Shown here in pieces: positions 4,511-59,372 of a stretch of 64,000 bases of DNA (position 1 is its first letter; each line of letters begins with the position of its first letter). The position numbers were made by a program, and so were the translations under genes. Location: assembly GCF_963921235.1 (NCBI RefSeq), contig NC_086097.1:59522001-59586000 (forward strand), written 5' to 3'. Under the pieces are notes generated by a model. The model saw only the letters and a program-made list of their open reading frames with translations. It made no database searches and was not told the DNA's origin. This DNA comes from Mobula hypostoma (lineage: Eukaryota).

Positions 4511-6275
4511 AATTTCACTAGCTCAATTAAAAAGACAAATAATTCAACTGAAGAAAAAAGCTTTGCACCAACTAGGTTGAACCAAAAGACAAAAATAAGT
4601 ACAATGTTACCTTATTAGTGTAACTATAATTGGCTAGATCTCACATTGTTTGATGCCTGTATTGAAATAATTAAAATGCTTCACCTGTGTGGGAACATTA
4701 AAAATAGGACATGTACACAGATTAGTTTGAATAAATGCACCCAAGGCTTAGATGAGATTCAAGTTTCTCACCTTCATATTTAATAATACACCTGACTTCT
4801 TCCAACCTAAATTCCCTTTCCTCCAATAATACAGGTGTTAGTTTTTCACATACAACAATCTAGTAGGAAAGGAATTTTTCATCCCAGTACCCACAAATGG
4901 CAAAGTTTGGCTTGGCAATTAAAAGGATCTTTGTTTTTTTTTGTCATTGACATGCTAGAGAACCCTCGTGGGAGTTGTGATCAGACAGCATTTGGAAGCT
5001 CAGTTATCATTTGCAGACATTGGTGGGTTTGGCTCACTGGGGCATCAAGTTCATCTATGAGTTGTGTATTGGGGAATCAGGAGGCAAGACCACAGATCAA
5101 GCACTGGGTCAGACCAGTCTAAATCTCAGTATCCTGCGGGGAGCAGGAGGTTGAAGTGCAAAGGATAGAAGGCTATTATGGGACTTGCCTTACTGTGTGA
5201 TCACAGCTCTGGTTCTGCTTCCAAGTCACTGACAATGATCACTCCAAGAATAATGCTGAATTACACCAAAATTGCCCCAAACTTTTACCAAATGGTTATC
5301 ACCATCATCTCTGTCTAGTTTATATTTTAAATAATATATCCTGCAATTAACAGCACTACATGATCCAGTTTGTAAGCTACTAAACATTTACAGCCACAAA
5401 GTGAAACCTCTGATCCAAAATATCCGAGCATATGTGGGCACAATATAATTCACTCAAATGGCAAAGAATTTTAAAATGTGTATTCTCCCATAATTATATG
5501 TTTCAATCTCTGTTTAGTTAACTGAACAGGTAGCTATGCTTCCTGACATACCTTCTGCAGATTTCTTCAGTGTGATTAACTACTCAGTCCCTTTGCTCGT
5601 AGCACAATTGCTGGGCCCTGTGGAGTCTCTTTGAATTGATCTGGACAGCAGCAGTTACTGGACACCAGGAGTCTTAACCACAGAGATCACTAGATCTTTG
5701 TGAAGAGCTCTGAAGGTCAATGCCTCCCAGGTGAAAAAATTCAAGCCAAGAGTTAAAGAATATTTAATGTAAATTTTGCTAACACTGTTGCCAGCAATCC
5801 TCGGTATACTCATCTAAGAAGAATATGTGTTGATATCCAAGTGTGAATCCCCTAAGCAACTGACGGGAGAATGGCAAATGCGAAAAATGGAAGGTATTGA
5901 ATAATTCCTGTGGATTATTACGCAAATCATGCAGCCGAGGAACTGTTATCGTAATGCTGCTTCTATTTGTGTTTATCAATGTGAACAGGGTTATAGGAGT
6001 CATGCAGCTGCAGCAGAGTAAATCTTGCTTCAGGCAGTTGATCACGCAGAACTTGAATAAAACACACATTTCCCTTTTTTCCACATGTAGTTTCAAGTTC
6101 ATTCCACTGCTAATTTAACTTTTCAAAAGAATCCTAGCAGCATGGAAGGTGATTCAGCTCAGTCTTATTTCCCTCCTCTTTCCCCAGAGACCTGAATATC
6201 ATTGTGTCCTCCCAAAGCAATTCTCTTGAAAGCCCCGTTATAATATAATGGGGCACCATGGTAGCTTAGTGGTTA

Positions 6276-10584: not shown

Positions 10585-10860
10585 TGTGTAATTTACCCAC
10601 AGGAGTGAAGGCCAAAGTTTACTTTGTCACCAGATGATCTGTGGTAGGAGCAGATCCAAAGTATACTAAATAGAGGATGTGGGGCTTGTATGTGCAGTAG
10701 TGAAGTTACCACCTTTGGTTCAAGAGCCTGATGGTTGAGTGTAATAAATATCTCTGAACCTAATGGTGTGAGTTCTGAGGCTCCTGTACCTCTTTCCTGA
10801 TGGCAGCAGTGAGAAGAGGGCATGGCCTGGAAGACGGACAGCTGCTGGTGGACTCCTAGA
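10585..10860 (-). mobile_element. Rex1/Babar LINE 3' fragment
   Basis: HALFSLLPSGKRYRSLRTHTIRFRD in ORF 10720-10974, homologous to 7210-7340. Confidence 0.75.
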
Positions 10861-10999
10861 ATGTCTCGGAAATCGAAGTAAAAACAATTTATATGCAATA
10901 GCCCATGACTTATACAAAAGGAAATCAGAAATACCTTTGAGCCAAGGCAACTGATCTAAAACTCTTTCTGGCACAATAGTGCAGGCAGCAAATCTACGC

Positions 11000-11140
11000 T
11001 TTCAGTCCTGAAGAATAGTCTCGACTGGAAACGTCAACTGTTTATTCAATTCCATAGATACTACCTGACCTGCTGAGTTCCTCCAGCATTTTGTGTGTGT
11101 TGCTCTGGATTTCCAGTATCTGCAGAATCTATTGTGTTTT
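11000..11140 (+). mobile_element. Isolated Penelope terminal (pLTR) tail
   Basis: Matches the tail ...cctgctgagttcctccagcattttgtgtgtgttgc...tctgcaga shared with 28321-28465 and 51520-51628. Confidence 0.85.
11003..11040 (+). ncRNA. Minimal type I hammerhead ribozyme motif (Penelope-associated)
   Basis: cagtc-CTGAAGA-a-tagt(ctcg)actg-GAAA-cg-TC-aactg: CUGANGA box, 4-bp stem II, GAAA, ACGU palindrome, UC cleavage site, stem I with one mismatch. Confidence 0.75.
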
Positions 11141-11254
11141 AGATCTTTATTTTAACACCTGGAAAGGAACTATTTTTCCCGTGGAGGTGATATGTATTTA
11201 CCAGGTGAATTAATAAGTGCTTGTAATAAACTGTTTGTTTAGGTCTTGGGAGCC

Positions 11255-13668: not shown

Positions 13669-14083
13669 TTAAAATACTGCTGATCTTCATACAAAAGCAC
13701 AGAAGTACAGTGGGTGCCAGAAAGTTTGTGAACCCTGCAAAATTTTCTCTATATCTGCATAAATGTAACAAATGTGATCTGATCTTCACATAAATCCTAA
13801 AACTAGATAAAGAGACCCCACTTAAATAAATAACACAAAACATTATATTTGTTCATTTACCTATTGAGAAAAATTATTTAATATTACATGTATTTGTTGG
13901 AAAAAGTATGTGAACCTTCGAGGTAATGCCTTCTACAAAAGCTATTTGGAGTCAGGTGTTCCACTCAATGAGATGAGATTGGAGGTTTGGGTTGTAGAGG
14001 CGCCCTGCCCTATAAAAAAGACACACAAAGTCAGGTTACTAACAGAACCTGATCTTTTCAAGAAAGATCTGCTTATGTGCACC

Positions 14084-15975
14084 ATGCCTCGATCAAAACA
14101 ACTTTCAGAGGACATTAGAAGAATTGTAGAGATGCATGAAGCTGGAAAAGGCTACAAAAGCATTTCTAAAGACCTGAATGTTCATCAGTCCAGAGTAGAA
14201 GAAATTGTCTACAAATGGAGGAAACTCAGTACTCCCTAGAAGTGGGCATCCTGCAATGATCGCACCAAGAGCGCAATGTGCAATGCTGAAGGAGGTGAAA
14301 AAGAACCCAAGGGTAAGAGCAAAAGACCTACAGAAACCTCTAGAACTTGCTGAAGTCTCTGTTCATGTGTACACATGAAAAACACTGAAAATGAATGGTG
14401 TACATGGAAGGACACTGCATAGCAAACCACTGCTCTCCAAAAAAAAATTGCCACACGACTTAAGTTTGCAAAAGACCAACTGGATGTTCCACAACACTTC
14501 TGGGACAATGTTGTGGACAGAGGAGACAGAAGTTGAACTTTGAACTATGAAGCATAGTAGAAGGAGCATCACACACAAAATGCTGGAGGATCCCAGCAGG
14601 GAGGGCAGCATCTGTGGAAAAGAATATTGATGAAGTTTCAGGCTGAAACCCTTCAGCAGGACTGGAGACAAATAGCAGAGGAGTAGATTTAAAAGGTTGG
14701 GGGAGGGGAGAGAGAAACACAAGATGATAAGTGAAACCTGAAGGGGAAGTTGATAGGTGAAAGAGACAGAAGGTCATGGAAGAAAGTAAAAGGGGAGGAC
14801 CACCAGAGGGAGTCCCTTAGGAAGGCAAGGAGATAGGGAGAGAGAAGGAAAGGGGGATGGGAAATGGTGACAGAGGGGGCAGTGGGGTGGTGTGGGGCAT
14901 TACTGGAAGGTCAAGAAATCGATATTCATGCCATCAGGTTGGAGGTACCAAATGGAATAAAAGGTGTTATACTTACAACCTAAGTGTGGCCTCATCACAA
15001 CAAGTGGAGGAGACCATGGATAGACATCAGAATGGGTATGGGAGGTAGAATTAAAAAGAATGGTAACTGGGAGATCTCACTTTTTCTGGCGGATGGAGCA
15101 TAGGTGCTTGGCAAAGTGGTCTCCCAATCTATATCGGGTCTCATTGACATACAGGAGGCCACACCGGAAGTCCTGCATACAGTAGATGACTCCAACAGAC
15201 TCACAGGTGAAGTGTCGCCTCACCTGGAAGGACTGTTTAGGACCCCGAATGTTAGTGAGAGAGGAGATGTAGGGACAGGAGTAGCACTTGTTCCACCTTC
15301 AAGGATAAGTGCCAGAAGGGAGATCAGTGGGGTGGGACGAATGGACTAGCGAGTGCATAGGGAGTGATCCCTGCGGAAAGCAGAAAGTGGGGAGGAGGGA
15401 AAGATGTGCTTGGTGGTGGGATCCCATTGGAGATTGCGGAAATTTTGGAGAAAAATTATGTGCTGGATGCAGAGGCTGGTGGGATGCTAGGTGAGGACAA
15501 GAGGAACCCTATCCCTGGTAGGGTGGTGGGAGGATGGGGTAAGCATCATGGTTTGGGGCTGCTTTGATGCCTCAGGGCCTGGACAGCTTGCAATCATTGA
15601 GGGAAGAATGAACTTGAAATTGTATCAAGACATTTTACAGGAGAATGTCATGGTAGAAGTCCATCACCTGAAGCTTAATAGAAGTTGGATAATGCAACAA
15701 GACAATGGTCTGAAAGACAAGAGTAAATCAACAATGGAAGAAGAAATTTGTGTTTTGAAAGGGCTGAGTCAATGTCCTGACCTTAATCCTATAGGAATGT
15801 TGTGGAAGAATCTGAGGCAAACAGTTCATGCAAGGAAGCCGACCAATATCCCAGAGTTGAAGTAGTTTTGTAAAGACCAATGGCCCAAAACTCCTTCAAG
15901 CTGATGTGCAGAATCAACAGATACTGGAAACATTTGGTTGAAGTTTTTGCTGTACAAGGGGGTCACACCAGTTAC
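14084..15975 (+). pseudogene. Tc1 transposase pseudogene
   Basis: MPRSKQLSEDIRRIVEMHEAGKGYKSISKDL (paired-like HTH); SIMVWGCF; QQDNGLKDKS; SQCPDLNPIGMLW (catalytic E of SPDLNPIE replaced by G); frameshifts. End approximate. Confidence 0.9.
14572..15541 (-). mobile_element. Penelope-like element (GIY-YIG end and tail), 5'-truncated
   Basis: Reverse-complement homolog of 50540-51628; flanked by agcatca at 14565-14571 and 15542-15548. Confidence 0.9.
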
Positions 15976-16249
15976 TGTAAGGAAAAGCTCACATACTTTT
16001 ATCAAAAAATACATGTAATACTGGATCATTTTTCTCTATAAATAAATGAACAAGTATAATGTTTTTATGCTATTTATTTAATTGGCTTCTCTTTATCCAG
16101 TTTTAGGACTCACATGATGATCTGATCACTTTTTATGTCATACTTATGCAGAAACAGAGGAAACTCTGCAGGGTTCACGGTGAACATATTAGCACCACTG
16201 TATTTGAAACATGGAGTAAAAGACGAGCAGTTTACCTCTCTGAGGTTCA

Positions 16250-24204: not shown

Positions 24205-24745
24205 CACCCAGTGGCCACTTTATTAAGTACACCAATACACCTGCTCGTTAATGTAAATATTTAATCAGCCAATAATGTAGCAACAACTTAATGCATAAGA
24301 ACATGCAGACATGGTCAAGAGGTTCATTTGTTGTTCATACCAAACATTGGGATGGTCTTGCAATATGATCTCAGTAACATTAATGGTGAAATGACTGTTG
24401 GTACCAGATGGCGTGGTTTGAGCATCTCAGAAACTGCTGATATCCTGGGATTTCCACACGCAGTAGTCTACAGAGGGCAAAAAGCAAACAATAAAAAACA
24501 TCCAGTGAGCTGCAGTTGTGGGAATGTAAACACCTTGTTAATGAAAGAGATCAGAGTAGAATAGCCAGAATGGTTCAAGCTGACAGGAGCGGTGACAAGC
24601 ATTACAACAGTGTTGTGCAAAAGAGCATCTCTGAATGCACAATATGTCGAACCTTGAAGTGGCTGGACCACAACAGAAGAAGATCACAACCATACACTCA
24701 GTGGCCACTTTATCAGGAGATACCCAATAAAGTGGCCACTGAGAG
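24205..24745 (+). mobile_element. Non-autonomous Tc1-like element with a third internal TIR
   Basis: TA|cacccagtggccactttat ... ataaagtggccactgagag|TA; HTH remnant GEMTVGTRWRGLSISETADILGF; extra TIR at 24695-24713. Confidence 0.9.
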
Positions 24746-25724
24746 TATGTGTGCTAGTTGGAGCTAAATAAATAAGAAATCTCATTGTACGTCAATTTTT
24801 CCAAGATAGAAATAATTCTGAACATGATTTTAAAGGCAACGAGTTATAGCATTGGATTCAATGTAGCAAAGAAAATTTACTTGTAGCCCTATCACCTAAA
24901 GTAAGCAATGTCATCGGTATTCATATTTCCTGTCAGACCACTCGAATTTTGCAGTGTGTTATACCCATGCAGAATATGCAATCAAAATAAACAACAATTT
25001 TCTACCTTGCTATAGACAAACTCTTCCCCTGCACAAACCAAAAGTCAGTAACTGAATTTATCATCTTCCATCAGCTGACTCTGGGAACTAACCATTGAAA
25101 GAAATGACTTATCTTTACACTCTTTGCGGGTAATGAAAAGAGCAGGGAAAAGACATTTCATTCATTTCTCACATAAAGGGTATGTACTAAATACATTATT
25201 CAACAAGCAATATCCAACAGTTTTTTTTAGGAAATACAAGCTCAGATTAATACACATTTTTCTTAAAGTGTCAGATGGATTGATAGAAATCCTTAATCAA
25301 ATAACAGCAACATGTCTCTGTGCCACTGCTGGAATAACGGACGCATTTTCATCATGTCCTAGTTAAAGTAAGGAAGCATGTTTCAAAATTAAGCTCATAT
25401 TCAGCTCTTTGTTTTCTGTAAAATTTCAATTTCTTGGCAAGAAAGCTCAAGGGAGTTTCCTTCTAGTACTTGTTTTGCTCTTCAGGAATAAAAATAGCAT
25501 TAACTCGAAAGTCACATCCAATTTACTGTGCTGTGATGCTAGGGATTGGGGAAGGGAGATAAATTATTAACTATTTATACTTGTCTTCATTCAAAATTCT
25601 GTGTAGAATTATTAATGTAACATACATTTTAATGGAACAACCATTGATCAATAGATAAAAAGCCTGGAGTGCGAAAAGAAGAAACCTCTCTTTTCCAATA
25701 TCCAAGCAACACTTACAGAGCAGT

Positions 25725-26849: not shown

Positions 26850-28880
26850 CAGTGCAACTAAATCTACAGTCACCATTGAGGACATCAGATTGGTCACCTG
26901 TAGGGTGAACCCACAGAAAGTATCAGTCCCTGGCCATGCTTTTAGATCCTGCGTGGATCCACTGGTAGAGGAATTTGCAAGCATTTTTAAACTCTTCCTA
27001 CTTCAGATTGTGATTCCCTCCCTCATCCTGATAACCAGGAATAACAAGGTAACATGTCTTAATGACTACTGCCCATTCCCTCTGTCATCTACCATCATGA
27101 AGTGCTTTGAGAGTGCAGTCAAGGCACACATTAATTCCAGTCTCCTAGACAATTTCAACCCCCTGCAATTCTGTCTACCATTGAAACAGGTCTGTGGTGG
27201 ACACCATCTCCCTGGCTCTGCTTTCTGGAGCTTCTGGACAGTAAAGACACCTACAAGAAACTGCAGAGAGTTGTGGACCCATTATAGAAACCAACTTGAA
27301 ATCTATGGTTACCCATTGATGCTGCCTTCCCTGCTGTGATCCTCCAGCATTTTGAGTGTGTTGCTTGGATTTCCAGGATTTGCAGATTTTTTCTTGTTTG
27401 TGCATCTCTTCCATTTCACACGTGTGCCCTCACTCCATCCACTCACTGCATCACCAGGGACGGGGCTTCACCTGCCACCCCACCAGCTTCCGTGGCTAGC
27501 CTATAATTCTCTGTAACTCCTGCCATCTTCAACAGGATGCCACCATCAAACACATCTTTCCCTCCCCTCCCCCCAACTTTCCACATCCCTCAAGAATTGC
27601 TCCCTATGCAATTCCCTTATCAATTTGTCCCTCCCTACTGATCTCCCTCCTTGCATTTATCTTTGTCAGTGAAAGATGTACTATACCTGCCCCTGCATCT
27701 CCTCCCTCACTACCATTCAAGGTCCTAAACTCCTTTCAGGTGAGTTGACACTTCACCTGTGAGTCTGTTGGAGTCATCTACTGTATATGGTGCTCCCGGT
27801 GTGGCCTCCTGTATATCGGTGAGACCCAAAGTAGATTGGGAGACTGTTTCGCTGAGCACCTACACTCCATCCACCAGAAAAAGCAGGATTTTCTGGTGGC
27901 CACCCATTTTAAATCTACTTCCTATTCCCATTCTGACATGTCTGTCCATGGCCTCTTCAACCTCCATAATGAGGTCACTCTCAGGTTGGAGAAGCAACAC
28001 CTTACATTCCATCAGGGTAGCCTCCAACCTGTGACATGAACACCAATTTCTCCAACTTTCGGTAAATGCCCTCCCCCCCTTCACCATTCCCCCTTCCCTT
28101 ATCTCTTTACTTGCCCATCACCTCTCTCTGGTGCTCATCTACTTTTCCTTTCTTCCATGGCCTCCTGTCCTTTCCTATCAGATCTCCCCTTTATCTCTTT
28201 CACCAATCCACTTCCTAACTCTTTACTTCACCCTTCCCCCTCTTCTGGTTTCACCAATCACTTACTACCTTGTATTTCTTCCTCCCCTCCCCCCACCTTC
28301 TTACTCTGACCTCATCTTTTTTCTTCCCAGTCCTGATGAAGGGTCTTGGACTAAAACATTGACTGTTTACTCTTTTCCATAGATGCTGCCTGGCCTGCTG
28401 AGTTCCTCTAACATTTTGTGTGTGTTACTTCGATTTCCAGCATCTGCAGATTTTCTCTTGTATGTGACTGACCTCAGTGGTCACTTCTTTACTTCTTATT
28501 GCCTCAGTAATGCAGCTAGCATAATCAAACCACCCACTGCAAAAATTCTCTCTTCTCTCCTCTCCTATTGGTCAGAAGGTACAAAAGCCTAAAAGAACGT
28601 ACCACCAGGTTCAAGCACAGCTTGAATCCCACTATTATCAGTCACTTGAATGGATCTCTTGTACAATAAGATGGACTTGACCTCACAATCTACCTCCTCT
28701 TGCACTTTATTGTTTCCCTGCGCTGCCCTGTCTCTATTGCTTTCACACTTTCTTTTGCATTGTTATCGTTTTACCTCAATGCACTATGTAATGTTTCGAT
28801 CTGTATGAGCTGGATACAAAACAAGCTTTTCCCTGTACCTTTGTACAAGTGACAATAATAAACCATTACTAATACCAGTA
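26850..28880 (+). mobile_element. Rex1/Babar LINE remnant split by Penelope (~26850-27295 and ~28470-28880)
   Basis: ORF 26818-27339 KVTCLNDYCPFPLSSTIMKCFE...NPLQF; 3' part gtcagaaggtacaaaagcct... with tail gtgacaataataaacc. Confidence 0.8.
27315..28465 (+). mobile_element. Penelope-like element with a direct partial tail upstream
   Basis: Tail copy at 27315-27400; GIY-YIG region (gtcatctactgt...ctgtatatcggtgagacc = VIYC...LYIGET); full tail with decayed hammerhead at 28328-28365. Confidence 0.9.
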
Positions 28881-33028: not shown

Positions 33029-33769
33029 TGTGTGGTTACTGTCTGGCCTGCAAGGCAGAAGGCCACTGAAAATGGCCTCTCCTACATTACTGCATCTGTA
33101 GCAACACCTTCTCGTCGGTGTTCCCTGTTTCCACTGAGCTTGCTACGTGATGGCGTGACCGAGCGTCCGGCGGTATAACTGGATGGATAGGCTGGGCTCG
33201 TTAACCTTGGTTGGCAGCCAGCCCAAGAGAAGGACAACTCTGAATCCAAACCCGGGCAGATGGGGCTCGTCAGCCTTGGCAGGACATCCACCTAGGAGAA
33301 GAACACTCCGACATAAATCCTACGACCCGAGGACTTCGCTGTCACTGTCCCAGTTTGCTGGGCTATGGCAGGTGAACCCTGGGTGTAAAGGGTGGGGCCA
33401 GTACCGCACACACTGCACTCCACCTAAATTACCATTGCGCAGGCTGAAGCACATGCCCACATCTACAACCATCCTCCCCGACCATTCATCAAGCCCTGCA
33501 GCGATGGGAAGGGGGTGAAAACAGCAGGTGGAAGATGACACTGGAAGCCGCAGTTCCGATCCTGCATGCAGGCGGTTCAGATGTATGGGTCGTCTGATGT
33601 TGACCCCGGAGACGACGATATCACTCGGCAGCACCCGGAACGACCAAACAGCCTTCTCTAGGGACAGCACTGCTCGCTCCACATGGAGCGGTGCCTGGAA
33701 AAGGTGGCCTAACCAAAGCTCGTTTCCATTCCCCCAGTTGGCTAGGCGCAGTCAACGGGCATCCTCAAA

Positions 33770-36700
33770 TATGGTCGAGCAACAATAAAAAGAAAAGGAG
33801 AACACCTGCCTCACAAGGAGTGCAAGGACTAACGCTCGCATGCTGGAACATCAGAACCACGCTCGATACAGCAGACAGTGGTCGCCCAGAACGACGATCT
33901 GCCCTAGTTGCACATGAACTTTCAAGACTGAATGTCGACACCACTGCTCTCAGTGAAGTCCGCTTCCCAGAGGAAGGCAACCTTCAAGAACATGGTGCTG
34001 GCTACACCCGCTACTGGTCGGGCAAGCCAGAGACTGAGAGATACCTTTCTGGCGTTGGCTTTATGGTCAGGAACTCCATTGCCTCCAATCTTGAAAACTT
34101 TGCCAATGGGTTACTCCGACCACATCATCTCCATGCGCCTCCCACTTCGAACCAAGCAGCATGCCACAGTCTTCAGCGTGTACTCTTCAAGTGGATCCTG
34201 CAGAAAAGATCAAGTTTTACACTGATCTGTGCAATCTCGTACGGAACGCCCCTGCAGACGACAGGGTCTTCATCCTTGGCAACTTCAGTGCCAGAGTAGG
34301 TCAAGATTCAGAAACCTGGAAAGGAGTACTTGGCAAACATGGTGTGGGAAACTGCAACGATAATGGTCGCCTTCTGTTAGAGTTTTGCGCGGAGCAGCAA
34401 CTCCCCATTATTAACACCATTTTCCAGCAGAAAGACAGTCTGAAGACAACCTGGATGCACTCTCAGTCCAAGCACGTCATAGACTACATCTTGATGCGCC
34501 AGAGAGACCTTCGGGACGTCGTACTCACCCGAGTGATGCCCAGCGCAGAGTGTCATACGGACTATCATCTTGTCCGCTGCAAACTCAGTCTCCATTTCAA
34601 ACCCAAGCCAAAGGGAGGAGGCACTCCAAGGAAGAAGTTTTAGGTTGGCAACCCCAAGTCAGCTGAAGTGAAAGCTGACTTTCAGACGAATCTTCAGTGG
34701 AGGCATTAGGATCCCAGTTTCCCTACAGACTCTTCTCCAGAAGTGCTTTGGAAACACCTAAAAACCACCATCCTGCAAATCTCTGAAGTCCTAGGGTTTT
34801 CCACAAAGAAGAACAAGGACTGGTTCGATGAAAACAACCAGGAGATCCAAGAATTGCTAGCGAAGAAGCGATCCGCCCCAGCGCACCTTGCCTTGCACTG
34901 ACTTGTCTTGATAAGAAAGCACCCTTCCGCCTTGTATGCAGCAACCTCCAGTGTAAGTTTTGAGATATTCAGAACTTGTGGTGGACCAACCTTGAAAAGA
35001 GAACTCAGCTTTGCACAGACACTGGTGACTACAGAGGGTTTTATGAAGCCTCGAGAGCGGTGTACGGCCCTTTGCACTAGGCCCAGAGTCCCTTGCACAG
35101 TGCAGATGGTCAGGCGCTCTTCACAGACAAGGCATCCATCCTGAACCGGTAGTCAGAACATTTCCAGACTCTCTTCAGTGCCAACCGCATGGTCCAAGAC
35201 TCAGCAATTCATTGCATCCCACAACAGCCAGAGAAAACAGAACTGGACAAGATTCCAACACTAGAAGAGACAGTCAAGGCCATAGAGCAAGGCCTTGAAA
35301 AGTGGCAAGGCAGTGGCAGTTGTTGGAATCCCACCTGAGATTTGGAAGCATGGGGCCCATCGTTATACACCAGACTCCACGAGTTCTTTGTCTGCTGCTG
35401 GGGACAAGGTAAACTACCACAGGACTTCCGTGATGCAGTCATCATCACCCTGTATAAGAACAAGAGGGAGAAGTCCGACTGCTCCAACTACCGGGGGATA
35501 ACGCTTCCCTCTATCACTGGAAAAATCTTTGCAACAGTACTCCTGAATAGATTGGTGCCCGTCATTGCAGAAAAACACCTCCCAGAGAGCCAGTGTGGCT
35601 TCAGAGCCAACAGGAGCACCACCAACATGGTATTTGTTCTCAGGCAGCTCCAAGAGAAATGTAGGGCAAAGAACAAGGGATTGTACATGACATTTGTCAA
35701 CCTTACCAAACCATTTGACACCATGAGCAGGGAAAGCCTGTGGCAATTCATGGAATGACTGGGATGCCCCCCAAAGTTCCTCAGCATGGTCATCCAGCTA
35801 CATGAAGATCAGAGTGGCCAAGTCATACACAACAATGACCTCTCAGAACCCTTCCCAATAGACAACGGAGTAAAGCAAGGCTGCGTCTTCACGCCAACTC
35901 TCTTCACCATCTTCTTCAGCATGATGCTCGAAAGGGCCACAGAAGACCTTGATGATGAGGACGGTGTTTACATCCGATACCACACCAATGGCAGCCTGTT
36001 CAACCTGAGGCAACTACAGTCCCACACCAGGACATTGGAGCACCTCATCCGAGAGCTACTCTTCACCGACAATGCTGCTCTTGTTGCCCACACAGAGACA
36101 GCCCTGCAGCGTATAACATCTTGCTTCGCAGAGGCTGCTGAGCTCTTCGGACTGGGAGTCAGATTGAAGAAGACAGAAGTTCTCCATCAGCCTGCATCTC
36201 AAGAAGATTACCACCCTCCTCGCATCACCATCGGTGAAGTAGAGCTGAAGACAGTCCATCAGTTCAGCTACCTGGGTTGCACCATCTCGTCAGATGACAA
36301 GGTCGACAAACAGATTGACAAAAGACTGGCAAAGGCAAACAGCGCATTCAGCAAGCTGTACAAAATAGTTTGGAACAACAAGCATTTGAAGAAAGGCACA
36401 AAGTTCAGTGTGTACAGAGCCGTTGTACTGACCACCCTCCTGTATGGCTCTGAGTTGTGGGTCACCTACCGTCACTACCTACGACTCCTTGAGCGTTTCC
36501 ACCAGCACTGCCTCCGCACCATCCTCAACATCCACTGGAGTGACTTCATCACCAACATCGAAGTCCTTGAACAGGTGGAGGTCACCAGTATCGAGGCCAT
36601 GCTGTTGAAGACGCAGCTGCGCTGGGCAGGACACGTCTCCAGCATGGAGGATCATCGCCTGCCCAAGATTGTGCTGTATGGCGAACTCTCTACTGGCCAC

Positions 36701-37027
36701 CGTGACAGAGGAGCACCGAAGAAGAGGTGCAAGGACTCTCTGAAGAAATCCTTTGGTGCCTGTCACATTGACCATCGCCAGTGGTCTAATCTAGCCTCCG
36801 ATCGCGAGGCCTGGCGACACACCATTCACCAGTCTGTCTCCACCTTTGAGAATGCACGCAGGGATGGCATTGAGGACAAAAGGAGAAGGAAGAAGAACCA
36901 TGACACAGCAGCACCAAACCCAGAACAGAATTTCCCTTGCAGCCACTGTGGCCGAACTTGCCTGTCCCGTATTGGCCTCATCAACTACCAACGAGTCTGG
37001 AGCAGACACAGGCAGCCCCCTTCCTAA
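33770..37027 (+). pseudogene. RTE endonuclease-reverse transcriptase ORF, disrupted
   Basis: LACWNIRT, ALSEVR, ILGNFSARVG, IDYIL, NYRGITL, LPESQCGFR, GVKQGCV, LLFTDN (FADD degraded), YLG, QLRWAGHV, FPCSHCGR; several frameshifts and stops. Start approximate. Confidence 0.95.
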
Positions 37028-44657: not shown

Positions 44658-46843
44658 TCAGGCAGATGTCACAGGCAGAGTCAGTGATATGCAGATTAGA
44701 TTGTATAAATCTATAACTGCATCACGGTAAGGTCTCATTAGAGCTAGAAATTCTACTGTGTCATTCACTGTCTGTCCTTGCTTTTGTTTTGTTTCCAGCA
44801 GACGCCGAACCTGATGTAGCTCTGCAGTCAGGTTCACTTCAGTCACTCCATAGTATTGGGCCATTGGCCAAAGACTATTCTTGTCTAGGAAGAGCTTGTG
44901 TTGGGGACTCAGTGCTGAGACTCCAGTCAAAACAACCCCCCCCCCCCACCGCCGTCTCAATTGAGAACTGCCTTTTCATTTCAGTCAGAAGTCTGTCTAT
45001 AACTGGATAGAAACAGTGCTTGAAAAGGTCATCAGAGGATGTGACAGGTGTGCGTTCAGTTTGGGCCTCAACAACAAAATCATGTAGGCGGCAGGGTGGC
45101 TGGGCCTGTCTCCTTTCATGTGGTCTGCTCTGTATACCGGCCTTGACGCACAGCTCCCTAGCTCTTGCCTGAATTTCACTCCATGATTCCTCTCCCCGTT
45201 TTGCTGAGAGTGCATCGATAACAGACTGAGCCAATTCCACAGCTGATGAAAGCTCCAAACTGGGAGATTGTAGCTGGTCTGACATGAACTTGGTGACTCA
45301 GAATAAATCCTCAAACAGAGTGAGAAGTAAAGCAAACTGCTCATCAATCAGTCCATTTACAGCTCTGGCCTCCGTTTTCCACCGTGCATTTGGTTGACCT
45401 ATAATATCCTGCTAGAATGGCAGGGAGTGATTTCCTTATAGCACACAAAACTGTATACTGCCATGCCCAGCGTGTATCTGACAATTTCTTCAACTCCACA
45501 GGCTGTGCAGTTGATTCCAGTTCTCTCTGTTTCTTCATGAAAAGATCATGGGCAACAGAGTTTGAAAAGAGGTTGTAAAGCAGCTGCACAGTTTCAAAAA
45601 ACTCACCTGCCCGCTAGTTGTACATTGCTCACAACATTCACTAAAACAAGGTTAAGTCTGTGAGCATGGCAGTGTATATATAATGTCTGCGGGACCTCTT
45701 TCCTGAACCTCTCTTGTACCCCGTTATTGCACCCAGACATCACTACCGCCCCGTCCTAATACTGACCTATACACGCGTTCTTATCAATAACACACTGGGC
45801 GAGTGTCTGTTCAATGCTTTTAAGAAGCGACTCTGCGTCCAACCCTTCTGCTGGAGTGAAGTGCAAGAATTCTTCAAGCACTGTTTCGTTATTCAAATAC
45901 CGCACCACCACTGATATTTGCTCCTTTTTACTCAAGTCTTTACTTTCATCCACCATGATCACAAAATGTCCAGCCTCCTTGATTTCTGCACATATTTGAT
46001 GTCTGACCACATCTGCCATAATACCCATAATTTCATTTTGGATATCTTGATGGGTGTTTTTTGGAATTCCAGGATTGTCCTCTATTTTTTTAGCTACAGT
46101 CTTATCAAACTGTCCAATTACACTGAGCAACTCAACAAAGTTTCCCCTGTTGCCAGATACATCATCCTCCCGGTGTCCTCGCTGGGCAATGCCTTGGCAC
46201 GCAGTATAGCGTAGAGACTCAACCATTGCTCTCATATACTCATGATTTTCCTGGACAATCTTTGCATGTCCTTTGTCAAGCATACTTCCCAATCTTGAAC
46301 CGCCTTGTTTTCTCAATCTGAATTCGGCCCATGCCTCCATCGCAAACTTATGAGCTGCACTTACATGGTGGGTTTGAAAGCTGTTGTAGCTCTCCGCCAG
46401 TTGCAGTAACCGGTGACAGTGAAGGTAGACTCAGAATGGAACCCATGTCCTCCACACAGGAAATGCCTGCATGCGAAGCAGAACGTAGTATCTTTCGTGA
46501 TCGAATATTCCAGCCAGTCAAACCGGCCATGAATAAAACTCTTTTGCTGATTGCCAAACTGTTGTGAACAGCGAGGATACTTTTTCAATGCTGGCCGACG
46601 GGGTCCTTCCTCAGGTTGCTGGCTAACATCGCTAACAGTATTCCCACTAGCACTAAGAGCAGCTTCATCCACATTCTCTTCTGAATCCCACTCCATTTCT
46701 TGTTCCTCTACTTCGCCCTCACACTCCTTCGATGAACTGCTGTCGTCCTCATCCCCACTTACTTCTTTCTGCATGTCACTTTCAATTAAGACAGGCTCAG
46801 GCTGCGACACCACTGATTCCTCTGGATGAGGTCGTTTTCTCAC
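44658..46843 (-). pseudogene. hAT transposase pseudogene
   Basis: WLEYSITKDTTFCFACRHF (TTF ZnF), GNRGNFVELL and IMVDESKDLSKKEQISVVVRY (DUF4371-like), YIHCHAHRLNL at ~45650-45680, LSDTRW, LTLPVTSA (dimerisation domain, truncated); frameshifted. Confidence 0.92.
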
Positions 46844-47626
46844 TAAAAATCAATCTATTTTTCACACCGGCCAAAATAATGCACGTGCCAGCCCCACGCT
46901 AGCTTGTATAAACACAATGCGTGTGTGTGTGACATCTGTTAGTCTTGCGAGACCATGGATCTGTGCCTGGATGTATACTATCAATCTCTTGCGTGAGTGA
47001 GAGTGACTGACATCACCACCTTCTGTGATCTTAGATCAGCTTAACTGATCTGAGGACAGCAACGGCAAGACAGTGACAACGAACGAATAAGCAGAAGTGT
47101 AGAGTGGATCTGACCTTAGTCCAGCACAGAGTTTATAACTTTATTGCTGCATAGCTGCTATGGTAATTGGGGGTGCTGTTTCAATAGATCAACTGGAGAA
47201 ACAAGCTGTGTTCAAAACTATACAGAGAAAGCAAAGCAGCTGCAATTTATATATCAAATTTCAGTTATTTTCTTGGTGGTGCTACAGTGGTGCTATTGTA
47301 ATTTCTAGCACCACCTTAGCGCTGCCCCTGACAGACTTGCTAAACTCAAAAACTGTTTCATTGTGATAAGCACTAAACAGTGCACACAACCAATCTCGTA
47401 CAGATGGGGGAGATGACCATCACACACACCGGTTATAGTTAGTGTGCCCCACAAATACACAAGCAAAGAACTGTGTAAACCAAGCTAAAATTTAACAATA
47501 AATGAACTGGAACTTCCCACCGTAATCCCACAAAAGCATTTTAACACAGAACAATAAACAGTGCTGGTCATTAGAAATGCAGGGGCGGGCTGTCGATCAC
47601 GACCCCCCCTCCCCCAGAGCGTCACA

Positions 47627-50429: not shown

Positions 50430-51628
50430 ACATGAGGAAATCTGCAGATGCTGGAAATTCAAGCAACACACACAAAAAATGCTGGAGGAACGCCATCAAC
50501 TCTGCTCTCAAACGCATCTCTCCCATTTCACACACATCTGCTCTCACCCCATCCTCCCGCCATCTCACTAGGAATAGGGTTCCTCTTGTCATCACCTACC
50601 ACCCCACCAGCCTTCGGGTCCAATGTATAATTCTCTGTAACTTCCGCCACCTCCAACGGGATCCCACCACCAAGCACATCTTTCCCTCCCCACCTCTTCC
50701 TGCTTTCCACAGGGATCGCTCCCTATGTGACTCTCTTGTCCATTCGTTCCCCCCATCCCTTCCCACCGATCTCCCTCCCAGCACTTATCCTTGTTAGCGG
50801 AACAAGTGCTACACATGCCCTTACACTTCCTCCCTCTCCACCAGTCAGGGCCCCAGACTGTCCTTCCAGATGAGACGACACTTCACCTGTGAGTCGGCTG
50901 GTGTGATATACTGAGTCCGGTGCTCTCGGTGCAGCCTTCTATATATTAGCGAGACCCGACGCAGGCTGGGAGACCATTTCGCTAAACACTTACGCTCTGT
51001 CTGCCGGAGAAAGCAGGATCTCCTAGTGGCCACACATTTTAATTCCACATCCCATTCCCATTCTGATATGACTATCCACGGCCTCCTCTACTGTCAAGAT
51101 GAAACCACACTCAGGTTGGAGGAACAACACCTTATATTCCGTCTGGGTAGCCTCCAACTTGATAGCATTAATATTGACTTCTCTAACTTCCATTAATGCC
51201 CCTACTCCCTTTCACACCTGATCCCTTATTTATTCATTTAATATATATTTTTTTTATTTTTTCCCCTTTTTTTTCTCTCTCTCTCTCTTTTTTCTCCCTC
51301 TATCTCTCTCGCTCTAACTCCGGAGGGTGCCTGCTCTCCACCCTCCGGGCTCCCCTCCACCCTTCTCTTTCTCCCCAGGCTTCCCATCCCATGATCTCTG
51401 CCTTCTCCTGTCTGGTATCCCTTTTGCCATTGATCTTCCCAGATCTTAGATCCTCCTGTCTTCTCCTATCATTTCGGATCTCCCCCTCCCCCTCCTACTT
51501 TCAAATCTCTTACTATCTGTTCTTTCAGTTAGTCCTGACGAAGGGTCCTGGCCTGAAACTTCGACTGTACCTTTTCCTACAGATGCGGCCTGGCCTGCTG
51601 CGTTCACCAGCAACTTCTGTGTGTGTTG
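50430..51628 (+). mobile_element. Neptune-type Penelope-like element with inverted tail at its 5' side
   Basis: Inverted tail 50430-50491; then RVPLVITYHP, YPC.RNKCYTC Cys linker, GVIY...C..C.LLYISETRRRL (GIY-YIG) and tail with hammerhead motif. Confidence 0.93.
51530..51567 (+). ncRNA. Minimal hammerhead ribozyme motif
   Basis: tagtc-CTGACGA-a-gggt(cctg)gcct-GAAA-ct-TC-gactg; core boxes intact, ACGU palindrome mutated to ACUU. Confidence 0.65.
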
Positions 51629-52159
51629 GTAAAACATAATCTTTATTGTGTGTTTTGAGTCTAGATCAGATCCATACTGAGAGATTCAAATGACCTTGGA
51701 TTAATTAAGTATAGCATGAAGATGATCTGTGATTTAGAAATTCAAAAACTTGCAATCATCCTGTCTTCTTGTCCAACAAAATATTTTCCAGATTATTCAC
51801 CCCAAGAATCAATCCCTCCTTACCTTACTCTAGCAAATAATCTCCCTGTATTTGCCTTTCTCTCTGAGATTCTGCATCTAAAGAGAATCTTTACAGCTTA
51901 TCTTCCGAAAGTCCAAAACATTTCCTCAACTGGCTGCAACAACATTCTTTTCCCATTCACCATGTACAAATAACAACGGAATGATTTCTAACCTATCCAA
52001 ACATGGACTAACATTAAAACAGCGCCTGTTTATCTCCTTTCTCCAGAAGACCGTAAGACATAGGAGTAGAATTAGACCATACAGCCCATCGAGCCCACTC
52101 TGCCATTTCATCATGGCCCATTCAACCCTATTCACCTACCCTCTCACCATATCCCTTGA

Positions 52160-54997: not shown

Positions 54998-55628
54998 CGC
55001 AAACGCGAGTCAATCTGCAGATGCTGGAATTTGAAGCAACACACATAAAAGTTGCTGGTGAATGCAGCAGGCCAGGCAACATCTCTAGGAAGAGGTACAG
55101 TTGGCGTTTTGGGCCGAGACCCTTCGTCAGGACTAACTGTGAGAAGAGCTAGTAAGAGGTTTAAAAGTGGGAGGGGGAGGGGGAGATCCGAAATGATAGG
55201 AGAAGACAGGAGGGGGAGGGATGGAGCCAAGAGCTGGACAGTTGATTGGCAAAAGGGATATGAAAGGATCATGGGACAGGAGTCCTAGACAGAAAGAAAA
55301 GGGGGAGGGGGAAAAAAAAACAGAGGATGGGCAAGTGGTAGAGTGAGGGGAACAGAGGGAGAAAAAGGAGAGAGAGAAAAAGAATGTGTGTATATAAATA
55401 AATAATGGGTGGGGTACAAGGGGGAGCTGGGGCATTAACAGAAGTTTGAGAAGTCAATGTTCATGCCATCAGGTTGGAGGCTAACCAGACGGAATATAAG
55501 CTGTTGTTCCTCCAACCTGAGTGTGACTTCATCTTTACAGTTGAGGCCGTGGATAGACGTATCAGAATGGGAATGGGACGTGGAATTAAAATGTGTGGCC
55601 ACTGGAAGATCCTGCTTTCTCTGGCCGA
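54998..55628 (-). mobile_element. Penelope inverted 3' segment
   Basis: Reverse-complement homolog of ~51000-51628, with decayed hammerhead at 55098-55135. Confidence 0.92.
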
Positions 55629-55631
55629 AAG

Positions 55632-56342
55632 AGCCAACTTTCACCCTGCCCTCAAGTTTACCTGGTCCATTTCCAACACCTCCCTCCCCTTTCTAGATCT
55701 TTCTGTCTCTATCTCTGGAGACAGCTTATCTACTGATGTCTACTGTAAGCCTACTGACTTTCACAGCTATCTGGACTATTCCTCTTCTCACCCTGTTTCT
55801 TGCAAAAATGCCATCCCCTTCTCGCAATTCCTCCGTCTCCGCCGCATCTGCTCTCAGGATGAGGCGTTTCATTCCAGGACGTGGGAGATGTCCTCCTTTT
55901 TTAAAGAAAGGGGCTTCCCTTCCTCCACTATCAACTCTGCTCTCAAACACATCTCCCCCATTTCACTCACACCTGCTCTCACTCCATCCTCCCGCCACCC
56001 AACTCGGAATAGGGTTCCCCTTGTCCTCACTTACCACCCCACCAGCCTCCGGGTCCAACATATAATTCTCCGTAACTTCCGCCACCTCTAACAGGATCCC
56101 ACCACTAAGCACGTCTTTCCCTCCCCCCCCCTCCGCTTCCCACAGGGATCACTCCCTACGTGACTCCCTTGTCCATTCGCTGCCCCCCCCCATCCCTCCC
56201 CACCGATCTCCCTCCTGGCACTTATCCTTGTAAGCGGAACAAGTGCTACACATGCCCTTACACTTCCTCCCTCACTACCATTCAGGGCCCCAGACAGTCC
56301 TTCCAGGTGAGGCGACACTTCACCTGTGAGTCGGCTGGGGTG
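55632..56342 (+). mobile_element. Penelope RT C-terminus and linker, cut at the GIY motif
   Basis: ORF 55474-56091 NFHPALKFT...LPFLDL...TDVYCKPTD...YSSSHP...IPFSQFLRLRRICS; YPCKRNKCYTC; stops at CESAGV. Confidence 0.93.
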
Positions 56343-57489
56343 AACCGTGCCTCCGATGCCTTGCTTTATGGTAAAGGTGTAGTCATGTCACAATATAAAG
56401 AGTGTTGGAAGTGAGCATCCCATCGCCTTTGCATCACATTCCCTTACCACTACAGAGAAAAATTATGCACAGTTTGACAGCGAGGCCCTGAGTTTGGTTT
56501 GAGGTGTAAGACATTTCAACCAGTATCTGTATGGAAGAGAGTTTACCCTCATTACTGATTATCAACCAGTAATGGCCATTTTCAATCCACAGAAGGGTGT
56601 TCCACGAACAGCAGCAGTATGAATGTGGAGCTGGGCTCTGCTTCTTGGAAGAACAATTAAAACATCGGATTCAAGAAGATGACTAATCATGGAGATGCTG
56701 ATGGATTGTCCTGTTTATCCTGAGAAAACAGGAAATACATAAAAAATTTTCAAAAGGGGACACTCAGCTTGAAGTATCTCCCTAATGCAAAGCGAAAGTC
56801 TCCTTATTATAGCAAAGATGATCCAAAGGGAAACTAGACAAGACCCCACACTGTCTCAGGTCTACATGGCAACCCAAAATGGCAGGAAAGTACAGCAGGA
56901 ATTCCAGTTCCCCCATTTTACCAGTGCTGGAATGAACTTGTCCTTGACGGGGGTTGCCTTGTGTGGAGATTGAACGTTGTTGTACCATCCAGGCTTGGAG
57001 CTAATGTGTTGGAGGAGCTACATGCCGGTCAGCTATATGTGGTCAAAATAAATGCATTGGCTCAAAGCTTTGTTCAGTGGCATGGGATAGACCAGCAGGT
57101 CGAGGAGTTTGTCATGCACTGTTTGGGATGCCAGCACGTCCAGGAGAAAGGTGCCAGAACTGTCAGAACCTGCTCCTGCATTCCCAGTGTCATGGTTTGG
57201 TCCGAAATCCGCATTCTGGTTCACGGTCCAGTCCGTGGACTCTAGACTCCGGGTCTTCTGGCTGTCCCTGATTTGGTTGGACTTAAACATAAGCACCTGA
57301 TGCTCATCTTGGGGCTGGGAATATAACTGGCCCTGGGATCGAGTATGTTTGCTGGTTGTCTCATCAGTCTCCCTTTAGAGCAACCCACTGGTGGAAGGCT
57401 AGTGCAGTCATCAGGATATGGATTTGACTGTTCTGCAGCCCGCCGAGGTTACTGGCTGCCTTGAGTCTTGGAGCCACCCCAGGCCTAGC

Positions 57490-57698: not shown

Positions 57699-58922
57699 AA
57701 GAACCCAAGCCTCGCCACGTCTTTGCCTGGTCTCTTAGGAACCCATGCCTCGCCAAGTCTTTGCCTGTTCTCTTAGGAACCCAAGCCTCTCCACGTCTTT
57801 GCCTGTTCTCCAGGAACCCAAGCCTCGCCACGTCTTTGCCTGGTCTCCAGGAACCCAAGCCTCGCCACGTCTTTGCCTGTTCTCTTAGGAACCCAAGCCT
57901 CGCCACGTCTTTGCCTGTTCTCTTAGGAACCCAAGCCTCGCCACGTCTTTGCCTGTTCTCTTAGGAACCCAAGCCTCGCCACGTCTTTGCCTGTTCTCTT
58001 AGGAACCCATGCCTCGCCAAGTCTTTGCCTGTTCTCTTAGGAACCCATGCCTCGCCACGTCTTCGCCTGTTCTCCAGGAACCCATGCCTCGCCAAGTCTT
58101 TGCCTGTTCTCTTAGGAACCCATGCCTCGCCACGTCTTCGCCTGTTCTCCAGGAACCCAAGCCTCGCCACGTCTTCGCCTGTTCTCCAGGAACCCAAGCC
58201 TCGCCACGTCTTCCCCTGTTCTCCAGGAACCCAAGCCTCGCCACGTCTTCGCCTGTTCTCCAGGAACCCAAGCCTCGCCACGTCTTCCCCTGTTCTCCAG
58301 GAACCCAAGCCTCGCCACGTCTTCGCCTGTTCTCCAGGAACCCAAGCCTCGCCACGTCTTCGCCTGTTCTCCAGGAACCCAAGCCTCGCCACGTCTTCGC
58401 CTGTTCTCCAGGAACCCAAGCCTCGCCACGTCTTCGCCTGTTCTCCAGGAACCCAAGCCTCGCCACGTCTTCGCCTGTTCTCCAGGAACCCAAGCCTCGC
58501 CACGTCTTCGCCTGTTCTCCAGGAACCCAAGCCTCGCCACGTCTTTGCCTGTTCTCTTAGGAACCCAAGCCTCGCCACGTCTTCGCCTGTTCTCTTAGGA
58601 ACCCAAGCCTCGCCACGTCTTCGCCTGTTCTCTTAGGAACCCAAGCCTCGCCACGTCTTCGCCTGTTCTCTTAGGAACCCAAGCCTCGCCACGTCTTCGC
58701 CTGTTCTCTTAGGAACCCAAGCCTCGCCACGTCTTCGCCTGTTCTCCAGGAACCCAAGCCTCGCCACGTCTTCGCCTGTTCTCCAGGAACCCAAGCCTCG
58801 CCACGTCTTCGCCTGTTCTCCAGGAACCCAAGCCTCGCCACGTCTTCGCCTGTTCTCCAGGAACCCAAGCCTCGCCACGTCTTCGCCTGTTCTCCAGGAA
58901 CCCAAGCCTCGCCACGTCTTTG
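57699..58922. repeat. 37/38-bp minisatellite, about 33 copies
   Basis: Unit aggaacccaagcctcgccacgtctt(c/t)gcctgttctc(c/tt), head to tail with no spacers. Confidence 0.98.
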
Positions 58923-59372
58923 TCTGGTTTTGGAGTCCGAGCCTAAGTCAAGACTCAGGTTCTGTGTCCTTGTCCAGTCTCTGGCTCGGAGTCCACGCCC
59001 AGGCTCCTTGTTCCCAGTCCCTCGTCCTGGTCCTACTTCCCTAGCCTAGTGTGTGTTCCTGTCCTAACTCCTTGTCTGTTTCCAGTCCCGTCCCTAACTC
59101 TAGTTCTCTGGTCAAGTCCTGTTCCTAGTACTTCAGTGTCTGTGTCTTGCATTTGGATCTGTTCCCAACGCCCCCACAATAACATCCAGAGTCAACTCCT
59201 GTTACCACCACAGAAGAGACCCCAGAACCTGAGATTATTTGGCAGCCACAAGATTCACCTACCAAGCAGGAAAGACATTATCCCACAAGAGTAAGAAATC
59301 CTCCACACTCTTGAAAGGAACAATTTAAAATTTGCTGTGCTTTGCATGTCTATATAATAGTTGCATTATATA

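Follow-up and report, generated by a model that had tools for sequence, protein, structure and literature searches.

Minimal type I hammerhead ribozymes (min-HHRs) in the pLTRs of Penelope-like elements (PLEs), together with their dispersed truncated copies, have already been published. Cervera and De la Pena (2014, PMC4209133) describe them in Xena, Poseidon and Neptune elements of fishes, the coelacanth (~4,000) and Xenopus tropicalis (~9,000). As characterized there, these ribozymes combine a CUGANGA and GAAA core with an A15.1-U16.1 pair, H17, an extra nucleotide separating position 9 from 10.1, a palindromic 15.2-16.2 segment without helix III, and a helix I of 4-5 bp; they lie in pLTRs, mostly as single truncated copies, and intact ones are described as not cutting as monomers and cutting weakly as dimers. 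The Poseidon ribozyme of Anolis carolinensis cut only in the presence of protein, its cleavage was not required for insertion in vitro, and, according to the same account, its site showed no RNA ends (Frangieh et al. 2024, PMC11167929).

The motif studied here lies at positions 11003-11040 of the window, i.e. the whole 64,000-nucleotide stretch of the Mobula hypostoma genome that was analysed (NC_086097.1, positions 59,522,001 to 59,586,000). Its family is the published minimal type I hammerhead and shows the four traits given in PMC4209133, namely consensus families, an additional base following A9, G10.1-C11.1 and a palindromic 15.2-16.2; the first-pass annotation was right to call it a minimal, dimer-type type I motif. 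The 11003-11040 copy itself shows the core, A15.1-U16.1, H17, the extra nucleotide after position 9, the palindrome without helix III and the short helix I, and it shares the pLTR location and the single, truncated state. Unlike the published motifs, and unlike the family majority, which has G10.1-C11.1, it has lost both this pair and the 1.1-2.1 pair. We regard it as a decayed member in which three structural features are gone: the 10.1-11.1 pair, helix II (by prediction) and the closing of helix I. Helix II of the family has 4 bp, as against the 7-8 bp given for Schistosoma in PMC4209133, and the copy numbers reported below (~72,000 complete, 6,803 perfect) are far above the counts in that paper, although the counting methods differ and the figures are not strictly comparable.

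The parent element resembles the Neptune clade of C-terminal EN+ PLEs as presented by Craig et al. (2021, PMC8557442), with a single ORF, RT, a CX2-5CXXC linker and GIY-YIG, partial tandem pLTRs, an inverted 5' copy and an optional tail. It shares with Anolis Poseidon (PMC11167929) a pLTR hammerhead near the ORF start and two preferred 3' ends; however, the Poseidon ORF is described as starting inside the ribozyme, whereas the likely start codon of our best-preserved element, L153, is at 2431, 166 nt downstream of C3 (2265). Vertebrate non-LTR retrozymes (10.64898/2026.07.22.740005) and the amniote intronic hammerheads (RECK and others; PMC6155905) are likewise type I and of PLE origin. In contrast to the retrozymes, the 11003-11040 copy is a dispersed monomeric tail and not a tandem unit, and in contrast to the amniote motifs it lacks a canonical helix III and gives no evidence of ultraconservation. 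Retrozymes have been reported in one Chondrichthyes species (10.64898/2026.07.22.740005). Our literature search found no publication on Penelope hammerheads in cartilaginous fishes, and none in the shark literature as judged by title.

Organization of the 11003-11040 motif

The letter-by-letter reading of the motif given earlier matches the sequence exactly. On the plus strand, the 5' strand of helix I, CAGUC (11003-11007, with C2.1 at 11007; CAGTC is the majority in older subfamilies), is followed at 11008-11015 by the core C3-U4-G5-A6-N7-G8-A9 (CUGAAGA, 11008-11014) and an unpaired A at 11015, before position 10.1; such an extra nucleotide is a trait listed for PLE min-HHRs in PMC4209133. 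Stem-loop II (11016-11027), predicted to be unstable, consists of UAGU (11016-11019), the loop CUCG (11020-11023) and ACUG (11024-11027). At 11028-11035 come GAAA (11028-11031, i.e. G12-A13-A14-A15.1), CG and UC, C17 being nucleotide 11035, after which the cut would be expected. The letters confirm that a palindrome, ACGU (11031-11034), replaces helix III, the architecture described in PMC4209133. The 3' strand of helix I, AACUG (11036-11040), carries a G1.1-to-A change of the CpG-decay type, so that C2.1 faces A1.1; this C.A mismatch beside the cleavage site, already pointed out in the first-pass annotation, also occurs in 36 of 189 sampled copies.

The designation "near-intact" could not be maintained, as five of the eight stem II positions differ from the family, including both bases of the conserved G10.1-C11.1 pair. 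The family stem II is GGGU/GCCC, and that of the 11003-11040 copy is UAGU/ACUG, in which four pairs can still be drawn (U.G, A-U, G-C and U-A). U10.1.G11.1 in place of G10.1-C11.1 was seen in none of the 189 sampled copies. The statement that other copies have GGGU/GCC(C/U) holds for three of the five other stem II-spanning copies in the window, but not for those at 28325 (GGGU/GACU) and 32002 (degenerate).

The motif is not a chance match, since it belongs to a repeat: a profile built from 59 other copies has 11 matches within the window and 302 in a 1.35-Mb sample of the genome. Our own minimal-hammerhead descriptor returned 51 rows in this sample (some copies twice) and none in each of three shuffles; it found no match in the window, where the 11003-11040 copy fails it because the helix I pair beside the cleavage site is broken. 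No Rfam hammerhead family was detected in the window at E<=1, nor in the 11003-11040 copy at E<=10, a negative that is uninformative for minimal hammerheads, as an intact copy was also missed at E<=10.

The tail and its parental element

The hammerhead lies in an isolated, 5'-truncated 3' tail, which is the pLTR end of a Neptune-type PLE from an older subfamily; it is located at 10999-11140 on the plus strand and has no ORF attached (BLAST; nhmmer E 3.5e-37). The starts of BLAST matches concentrate at 10999-11005 and their ends at 11126-11139, and in comparisons with the fetched loci coverage was zero at the points sampled in 10840-10980 and 11160-11240. These boundaries and the empty flanking points define a 142-bp isolated insertion. 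The proposed "isolated Penelope tail" was thus borne out, with fuller copies tying this type of orphan 3' end to a Penelope ORF. One of them is a longer, older-type copy on the plus strand at 27402-28464, in which a GIY-YIG end (27749-28039; Pfam E 8.5e-4, below the gathering cut-off) is followed by a 294-bp spacer and a decayed hammerhead at 28333; its tail match, at 28325, is 82% identical to the 10999-11140 tail, and the succession of a GIY-YIG frame and a hammerhead tail provides the link.

Other fragments of the family in the window include a younger-subfamily copy at 50495-51635 (plus strand, 81% identical to L153), comprising a linker, an endonuclease end, a 3' UTR and a hammerhead tail with a broken palindrome, as well as a decayed, minus-strand hammerhead tail with A6 changed at 14564-14665 (profile match). 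At 55010-56343 an inverted pair, typical of PLE inverted insertions, joins a minus-strand tail with a decayed hammerhead to a plus-strand RT thumb and CX4CXXC linker. The RT-thumb fragment (55633-56088), used as a query, gave 77,132 candidates in the genome.

Ten loci with long frames (L148-L157), chosen by likeness to one window fragment, were fetched. L153 has the order pLTR (1804-2359)-ORF-pLTR (5316-5869), with pLTRs that are 98% identical, an open frame of 825 aa and an inverted 5' copy upstream. Each of its pLTRs ends in a hammerhead tail, with C3 at 2265 and 5775, and two same-strand tails are also present in L150 and L154. In fuller copies the two hammerheads, one in the upstream and one in the downstream pLTR, are ~3.5 kb apart, and the tail sits 294-299 bp past the GIY-YIG stop as well as in both pLTRs. 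Two of the long ORFs matched RVT_1 (E 8.5e-6 and 7.5e-3) and GIY-YIG (E 1e-3), all below the gathering cut-offs, and the frame of L149 contains the linker CKRNKCYTC (CX4CXXC) at residue 907. RT followed by a C-terminal GIY-YIG, the CX2-5CXXC linker, partial tandem pLTRs and the inverted 5' copy are all features of the Neptune type, to which we assign the parent element; the clade was set by domain order and linker only, and Nematis shares the linker.

The 3' ends of the 302 sampled tails cluster at two places: 80 tails end within profile columns 108-115 and 121 within columns 131-136. These two groups, ~22 columns apart, resemble a PLE tail, the second one touching the profile end. Ribozyme-made 5' ends were sought in the same 302 tails, which show no accumulation of starts at the predicted cut (2 begin at the column after it), although local alignment ends are blurred.

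Abundance and subfamilies

The sample consisted of 135 evenly spaced 10-kb stretches (1.35 Mb) of the 3.48-Gb genome. It contained 302 tails, 189 of them spanning the ribozyme, which extrapolates to ~780,000 and ~490,000 genome-wide, respectively. Among the 189, the core is kept in 66, of which 50 also pair stem II; a subset of 28 further retains the palindromic CG together with four pairs of helix I, and G10.1-C11.1 is present in 8 of these as well. The 28 structurally complete copies correspond by extrapolation to ~72,000 in the genome, or one per ~50 kb. The exact 34-place pattern of the intact motif has 6,803 genome matches (control, 0). The earlier suggestion that this genome holds many dispersed hammerhead motifs is supported, with ~490,000 ribozyme-spanning copies, 6,803 of them perfect. 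The unpaired nucleotide between 9 and 10.1 is present in 89 of 93 sampled copies.

Clustering on the non-ribozyme columns of 165 copies plus the 11003-11040 copy gave 5-7 clusters, the larger of which differ just downstream of helix I. The 11003-11040 tail falls into an unremarkable older subfamily, in which GGGT/GCCC predominates. Majority ribozyme letters of the larger clusters vary only at N7, in loop II, at 2.5 (C-G or U.G), at 11.1 (C or U) and at CpG sites, and no both-side changes were found between these majorities; one cluster is mixed at A6, and two tiny old clusters are noisy. Judged from these letters, the cluster majorities would fit constraint on the master lineages, without both-side covariation.

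All ten long-ORF elements (L148-L157) have U at 11.1 (G10.1.U11.1), with most other CpGs intact, and T stands at 11.1 in 35 of the 56 copies of the youngest cluster. It seems that a recently active lineage replaced the conserved G10.1-C11.1 by a wobble. A further 926 copies genome-wide have G at 11.1, giving a G.G mismatch. As A11.4 is absent from the first 100 listed, some of these G11.1 copies seem to stem from a young master in which the 10.1-11.1 pair was broken. On contigs C116 and C171 (L192), eight identical copies of one variant motif occur in pairs ~5.5 kb apart, probably as a segmental duplication or a tandem unit.

Predicted folding and cleavage

Two of the G-C pairs of stem II have become U.G and A-U in the 11003-11040 copy, and its predicted stem II energy is +0.6 kcal/mol, compared with -3.7 and -2.0 for two intact copies. 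The predicted probability of stem II is 0.02 for the motif alone and 0.00 in 76- and 141-base contexts, as against 0.87-1.0 for the same two intact copies. Stem II is predicted to remain unformed, its new GACUG being taken up by pairing with CAGUC of helix I. In helix I, the C2.1.A1.1 mismatch leaves four outer pairs. Drawn as an active dimer, the copy has an energy of -3.1, versus -16.7 and -11.5 for the intact copies; for all three, the predicted minimum is an inactive extended duplex. These predictions ignore help by protein, which was needed by the one vertebrate PLE ribozyme tested (PMC11167929).

The 10.1-11.1 pair is described as the most conserved one after A15.1-U16.1 (PMC3088659). 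Its loss is not decisive, since the same source lists natural hammerheads with a U10.1-U11.1 mismatch and a very weak stem II. Among the tail matches over 164 kb, the closest copies on the same strand are one 17 kb downstream that has lost GAAA and one 38 kb upstream whose 10.2 pair is broken; these matches, starting 50 kb upstream of the window and running beyond 73 kb, include no intact same-strand partner. The 11003-11040 copy probably does not work as a ribozyme.

Origin of the stem II changes

With a probability of roughly 90%, in our estimate, the 10999-11140 segment is the orphan 3' end of a Neptune-type element and carries an old, neutrally decayed hammerhead, predicted not to fold, whose stem II owes its drawable pairs to chance. 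Within the parent element neither hammerhead has its own helix III; the ACGU palindromes of the two would pair and the dimer would cut after C17 (PMC4209133, PMC11167929), probably only with the protein of the element (PMC11167929). Most insertions are 5'-truncated tails, and ~10% changes have accumulated in the 10999-11140 copy after insertion: set against the majority letters of 71 older-type copies, it departs at 12 of ~125 columns, 5 of which fall in stem II. In stem II, C11.1-to-G may have made a CpG in which C11.2 was then deaminated to T, with G11.4-to-A, G10.2-to-A and G10.1-to-T arising independently at background rates; the resulting GACUG would, by prediction, pair with CAGUC instead of stem II.

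The first-pass annotation had taken the stem II changes as compensatory. Understood as a sign of selection, this reading is not supported by the genome-wide counts. Given the pairing T11.2, A10.2 occurs 200 times and G10.2 2396 times, and given the non-pairing T11.3 the respective counts are 247 and 3045, which makes a pairing/control ratio of 1.03 (95% CI 0.85-1.25, p 0.80). In the 189-copy sample there are 20 both-side changes that keep a pair, versus 15.5 +/- 3.3 after shuffling, and 217 of 2000 shuffles reach 20. Non-CpG core columns are changed at 143 of 1576 places (9.1%) and downstream columns at 238 of 3284 (7.2%). The absence of covariation and these change rates indicate that inserted copies decay regardless of structure. 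It follows that the covariation test on genomic copies proposed in the first-pass annotation is unsuited to the family, as only the masters can show constraint.

The frequency of such a variant can be estimated from its parts. Copies with G11.1 carry T11.2 in 356 of 1282 cases (28%), those with C or T at 11.1 in ~2%, and the two changes of the 3' arm are presumably linked, because C11.1-to-G makes a CpG that then deaminates. There are 33 copies with an ACTG arm, i.e. 28 with GGGT (8 of them duplicates of one locus), 3 with GAGT, 1 with TGGT and 1 with TAGT, so that intermediate states are represented, and they occur on several subfamily backgrounds. For TAGT copies with a TG arm, the expectation is ~349 x 14/125 x 2/125 = 0.6 per genome, where 14/125 (A10.2) and 2/125 (T10.1) were counted by eye among the matches listed, with the 11003-11040 copy left out; for the exact TAGT/ACTG arm pair it is ~0.05 per genome. 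In two of the first 100 among 2,680 A10.1/T11.1 copies, counted by eye, another pair has changed on both sides while all pairs remain, which suggests that all-paired double-change copies number in the tens genome-wide, U11.1 being partly inherited. Two apparently compensatory pairs in a 4-bp stem can therefore arise by chance among about half a million decaying copies, and since chance pairing is helped by the creation and decay of CpGs, "covariation" in a single copy is not evidence of function.

Some observations speak against simple decay. The copy stands out as an outlier, given the expectation of ~0.05 for its exact arm pair; none of the 9 sampled copies (of 189) with at least four stem II changes keeps all pairs, and A10.2 is found slightly more often in TG-arm copies, in 15 of 126 (the 11003-11040 copy included) versus 200 of 2596 (odds 1.6, p 0.09). 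Its core is intact at all 12 nucleotides, as is the palindromic CG.

A quite improbable alternative is that one arm (or CAGTC, or the downstream TCGACTG) was copied onto the other in a single event of DNA template switching, which would mimic compensation without selection. A study of RNA stems describes this mechanism (10.1101/2021.04.15.439925); the 11003-11040 copy contains the perfect DNA inverted repeat AGTC-TC-GACT, and GACTG is the reverse complement of CAGTC. However, A11.4 is equally frequent in pairing and control doubles (12 of the first 100 of each, by eye), and no three-base event is needed, since 323 GCTG arms and the usual 8-12% of A11.4 account for the 33 ACTG arms. Template switching was rejected on these grounds as the source of the 3' arm.

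It is still less probable that the copy was exapted by the host, its core being kept and its stem II rebuilt by selection, and that, acting as a dimer in cis or in trans, it cuts a host RNA. Amniotes are known to have domesticated hammerheads in introns, but these are described as canonical, ultraconserved motifs with tertiary contacts (PMC6155905). The intact core and palindrome, and the four pairs still drawable despite five changes, would be in line with exaptation. They stand against the loss of the conserved 10.1-11.1 and 1.1-2.1 pairs, a stem II predicted to be unformed and a chance expectation of ~0.6 for this class of variant, and there is neither a nearby partner nor a Pfam host exon (see below). 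Persistence of the insertion can be cited in favour: in four related organisms, single contigs cross ~10804-11079, showing 11-26 differences and no more than one gap; the 10999-11140 insertion is therefore shared and old. The letters of these organisms at 11003-11040 are masked by paralogous contigs swamping 11000-11140.

Least probable of all is true master-level covariation, with the copy belonging to a small subfamily derived from an active master whose stem II had diverged. We rejected this because, even though subfamily-level variants exist at 11.1, N7, loop II and 2.5, a single TAGT..ACTG match with an intact core exists in 3.48 Gb, the tail groups with an ordinary GGGT/GCCC subfamily, and ACTG arms occur on unrelated backgrounds.

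Host context and neighbouring elements

The suggested cutting of host pre-mRNA finds no support at this locus, with no host exon found in 164 kb and no intact same-strand partner nearby. Pfam gave no match to host exons in 115 of the 252 unmasked stop-free stretches of the window (at least 52 aa, outside two transposon blocks), and in 114 flank stretches (drawn from the 150 longest among 169, once overlapping frames in a single block had been removed) two retroviral matches only; short or family-less exons would escape this search. As a general proposal, we consider it unlikely, though less so than any of the above alternatives, that two same-strand copies in one long intron, or copies on different transcripts, dimerise and cut host pre-mRNA in the presence of the Penelope protein. 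If they did, the Penelope hammerhead family would be a genome-wide source of self-cleavage sites, and the 11003-11040 copy would represent a disarmed relic; a retuned copy, retained across at least five related organisms, would be the less likely case. Related retrozymes of Xenopus are reported to be under-represented in introns (10.64898/2026.07.22.740005). With 6,803 perfect copies, long-ORF elements and paired pLTRs, the genome is a rich test bed for the role of the PLE hammerhead, and the same material bears on whether host genes avoid sense-strand PLE hammerheads.

Several other elements were recorded around the locus. A minus-strand region 6-8 kb upstream of the window (L158:1641-3729) matches TLV_coat env (E 3.4e-11) and an integrase C-terminal domain (E 1.6e-4) and is, to judge from these domains, an endogenous retrovirus remnant. 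About 12 kb of sequence 30-42 kb upstream of the window (L161 and L162:8000-10000) is stop-free in several frames of up to 1175 aa; the three frames scanned had no Pfam match, and the region is probably a tandem repeat. Within the window, a tandem array of 37-38 bp units, open in several frames, occupies 57700-59050, and a near-perfect hairpin at 24690-24750 scores as mir-9256 on both strands (47.7 and 43.1 bits against a gathering cut-off of 80), although it more probably represents a small DNA transposon's inverted repeat. Remains of DNA transposons were found at 13770-16133, with a DDE_3 fragment (15491-15865, E 0.007) between inverted arms, and at 44783-46932, where the frames at 45756-46849 are presumably hAT-like. 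A plus-strand LINE at 33604-37027, which we take to be of the RTE type, has endonuclease-like and RT frames, with an RVT_1 match (E 2.5e-9) at 35759-37027.
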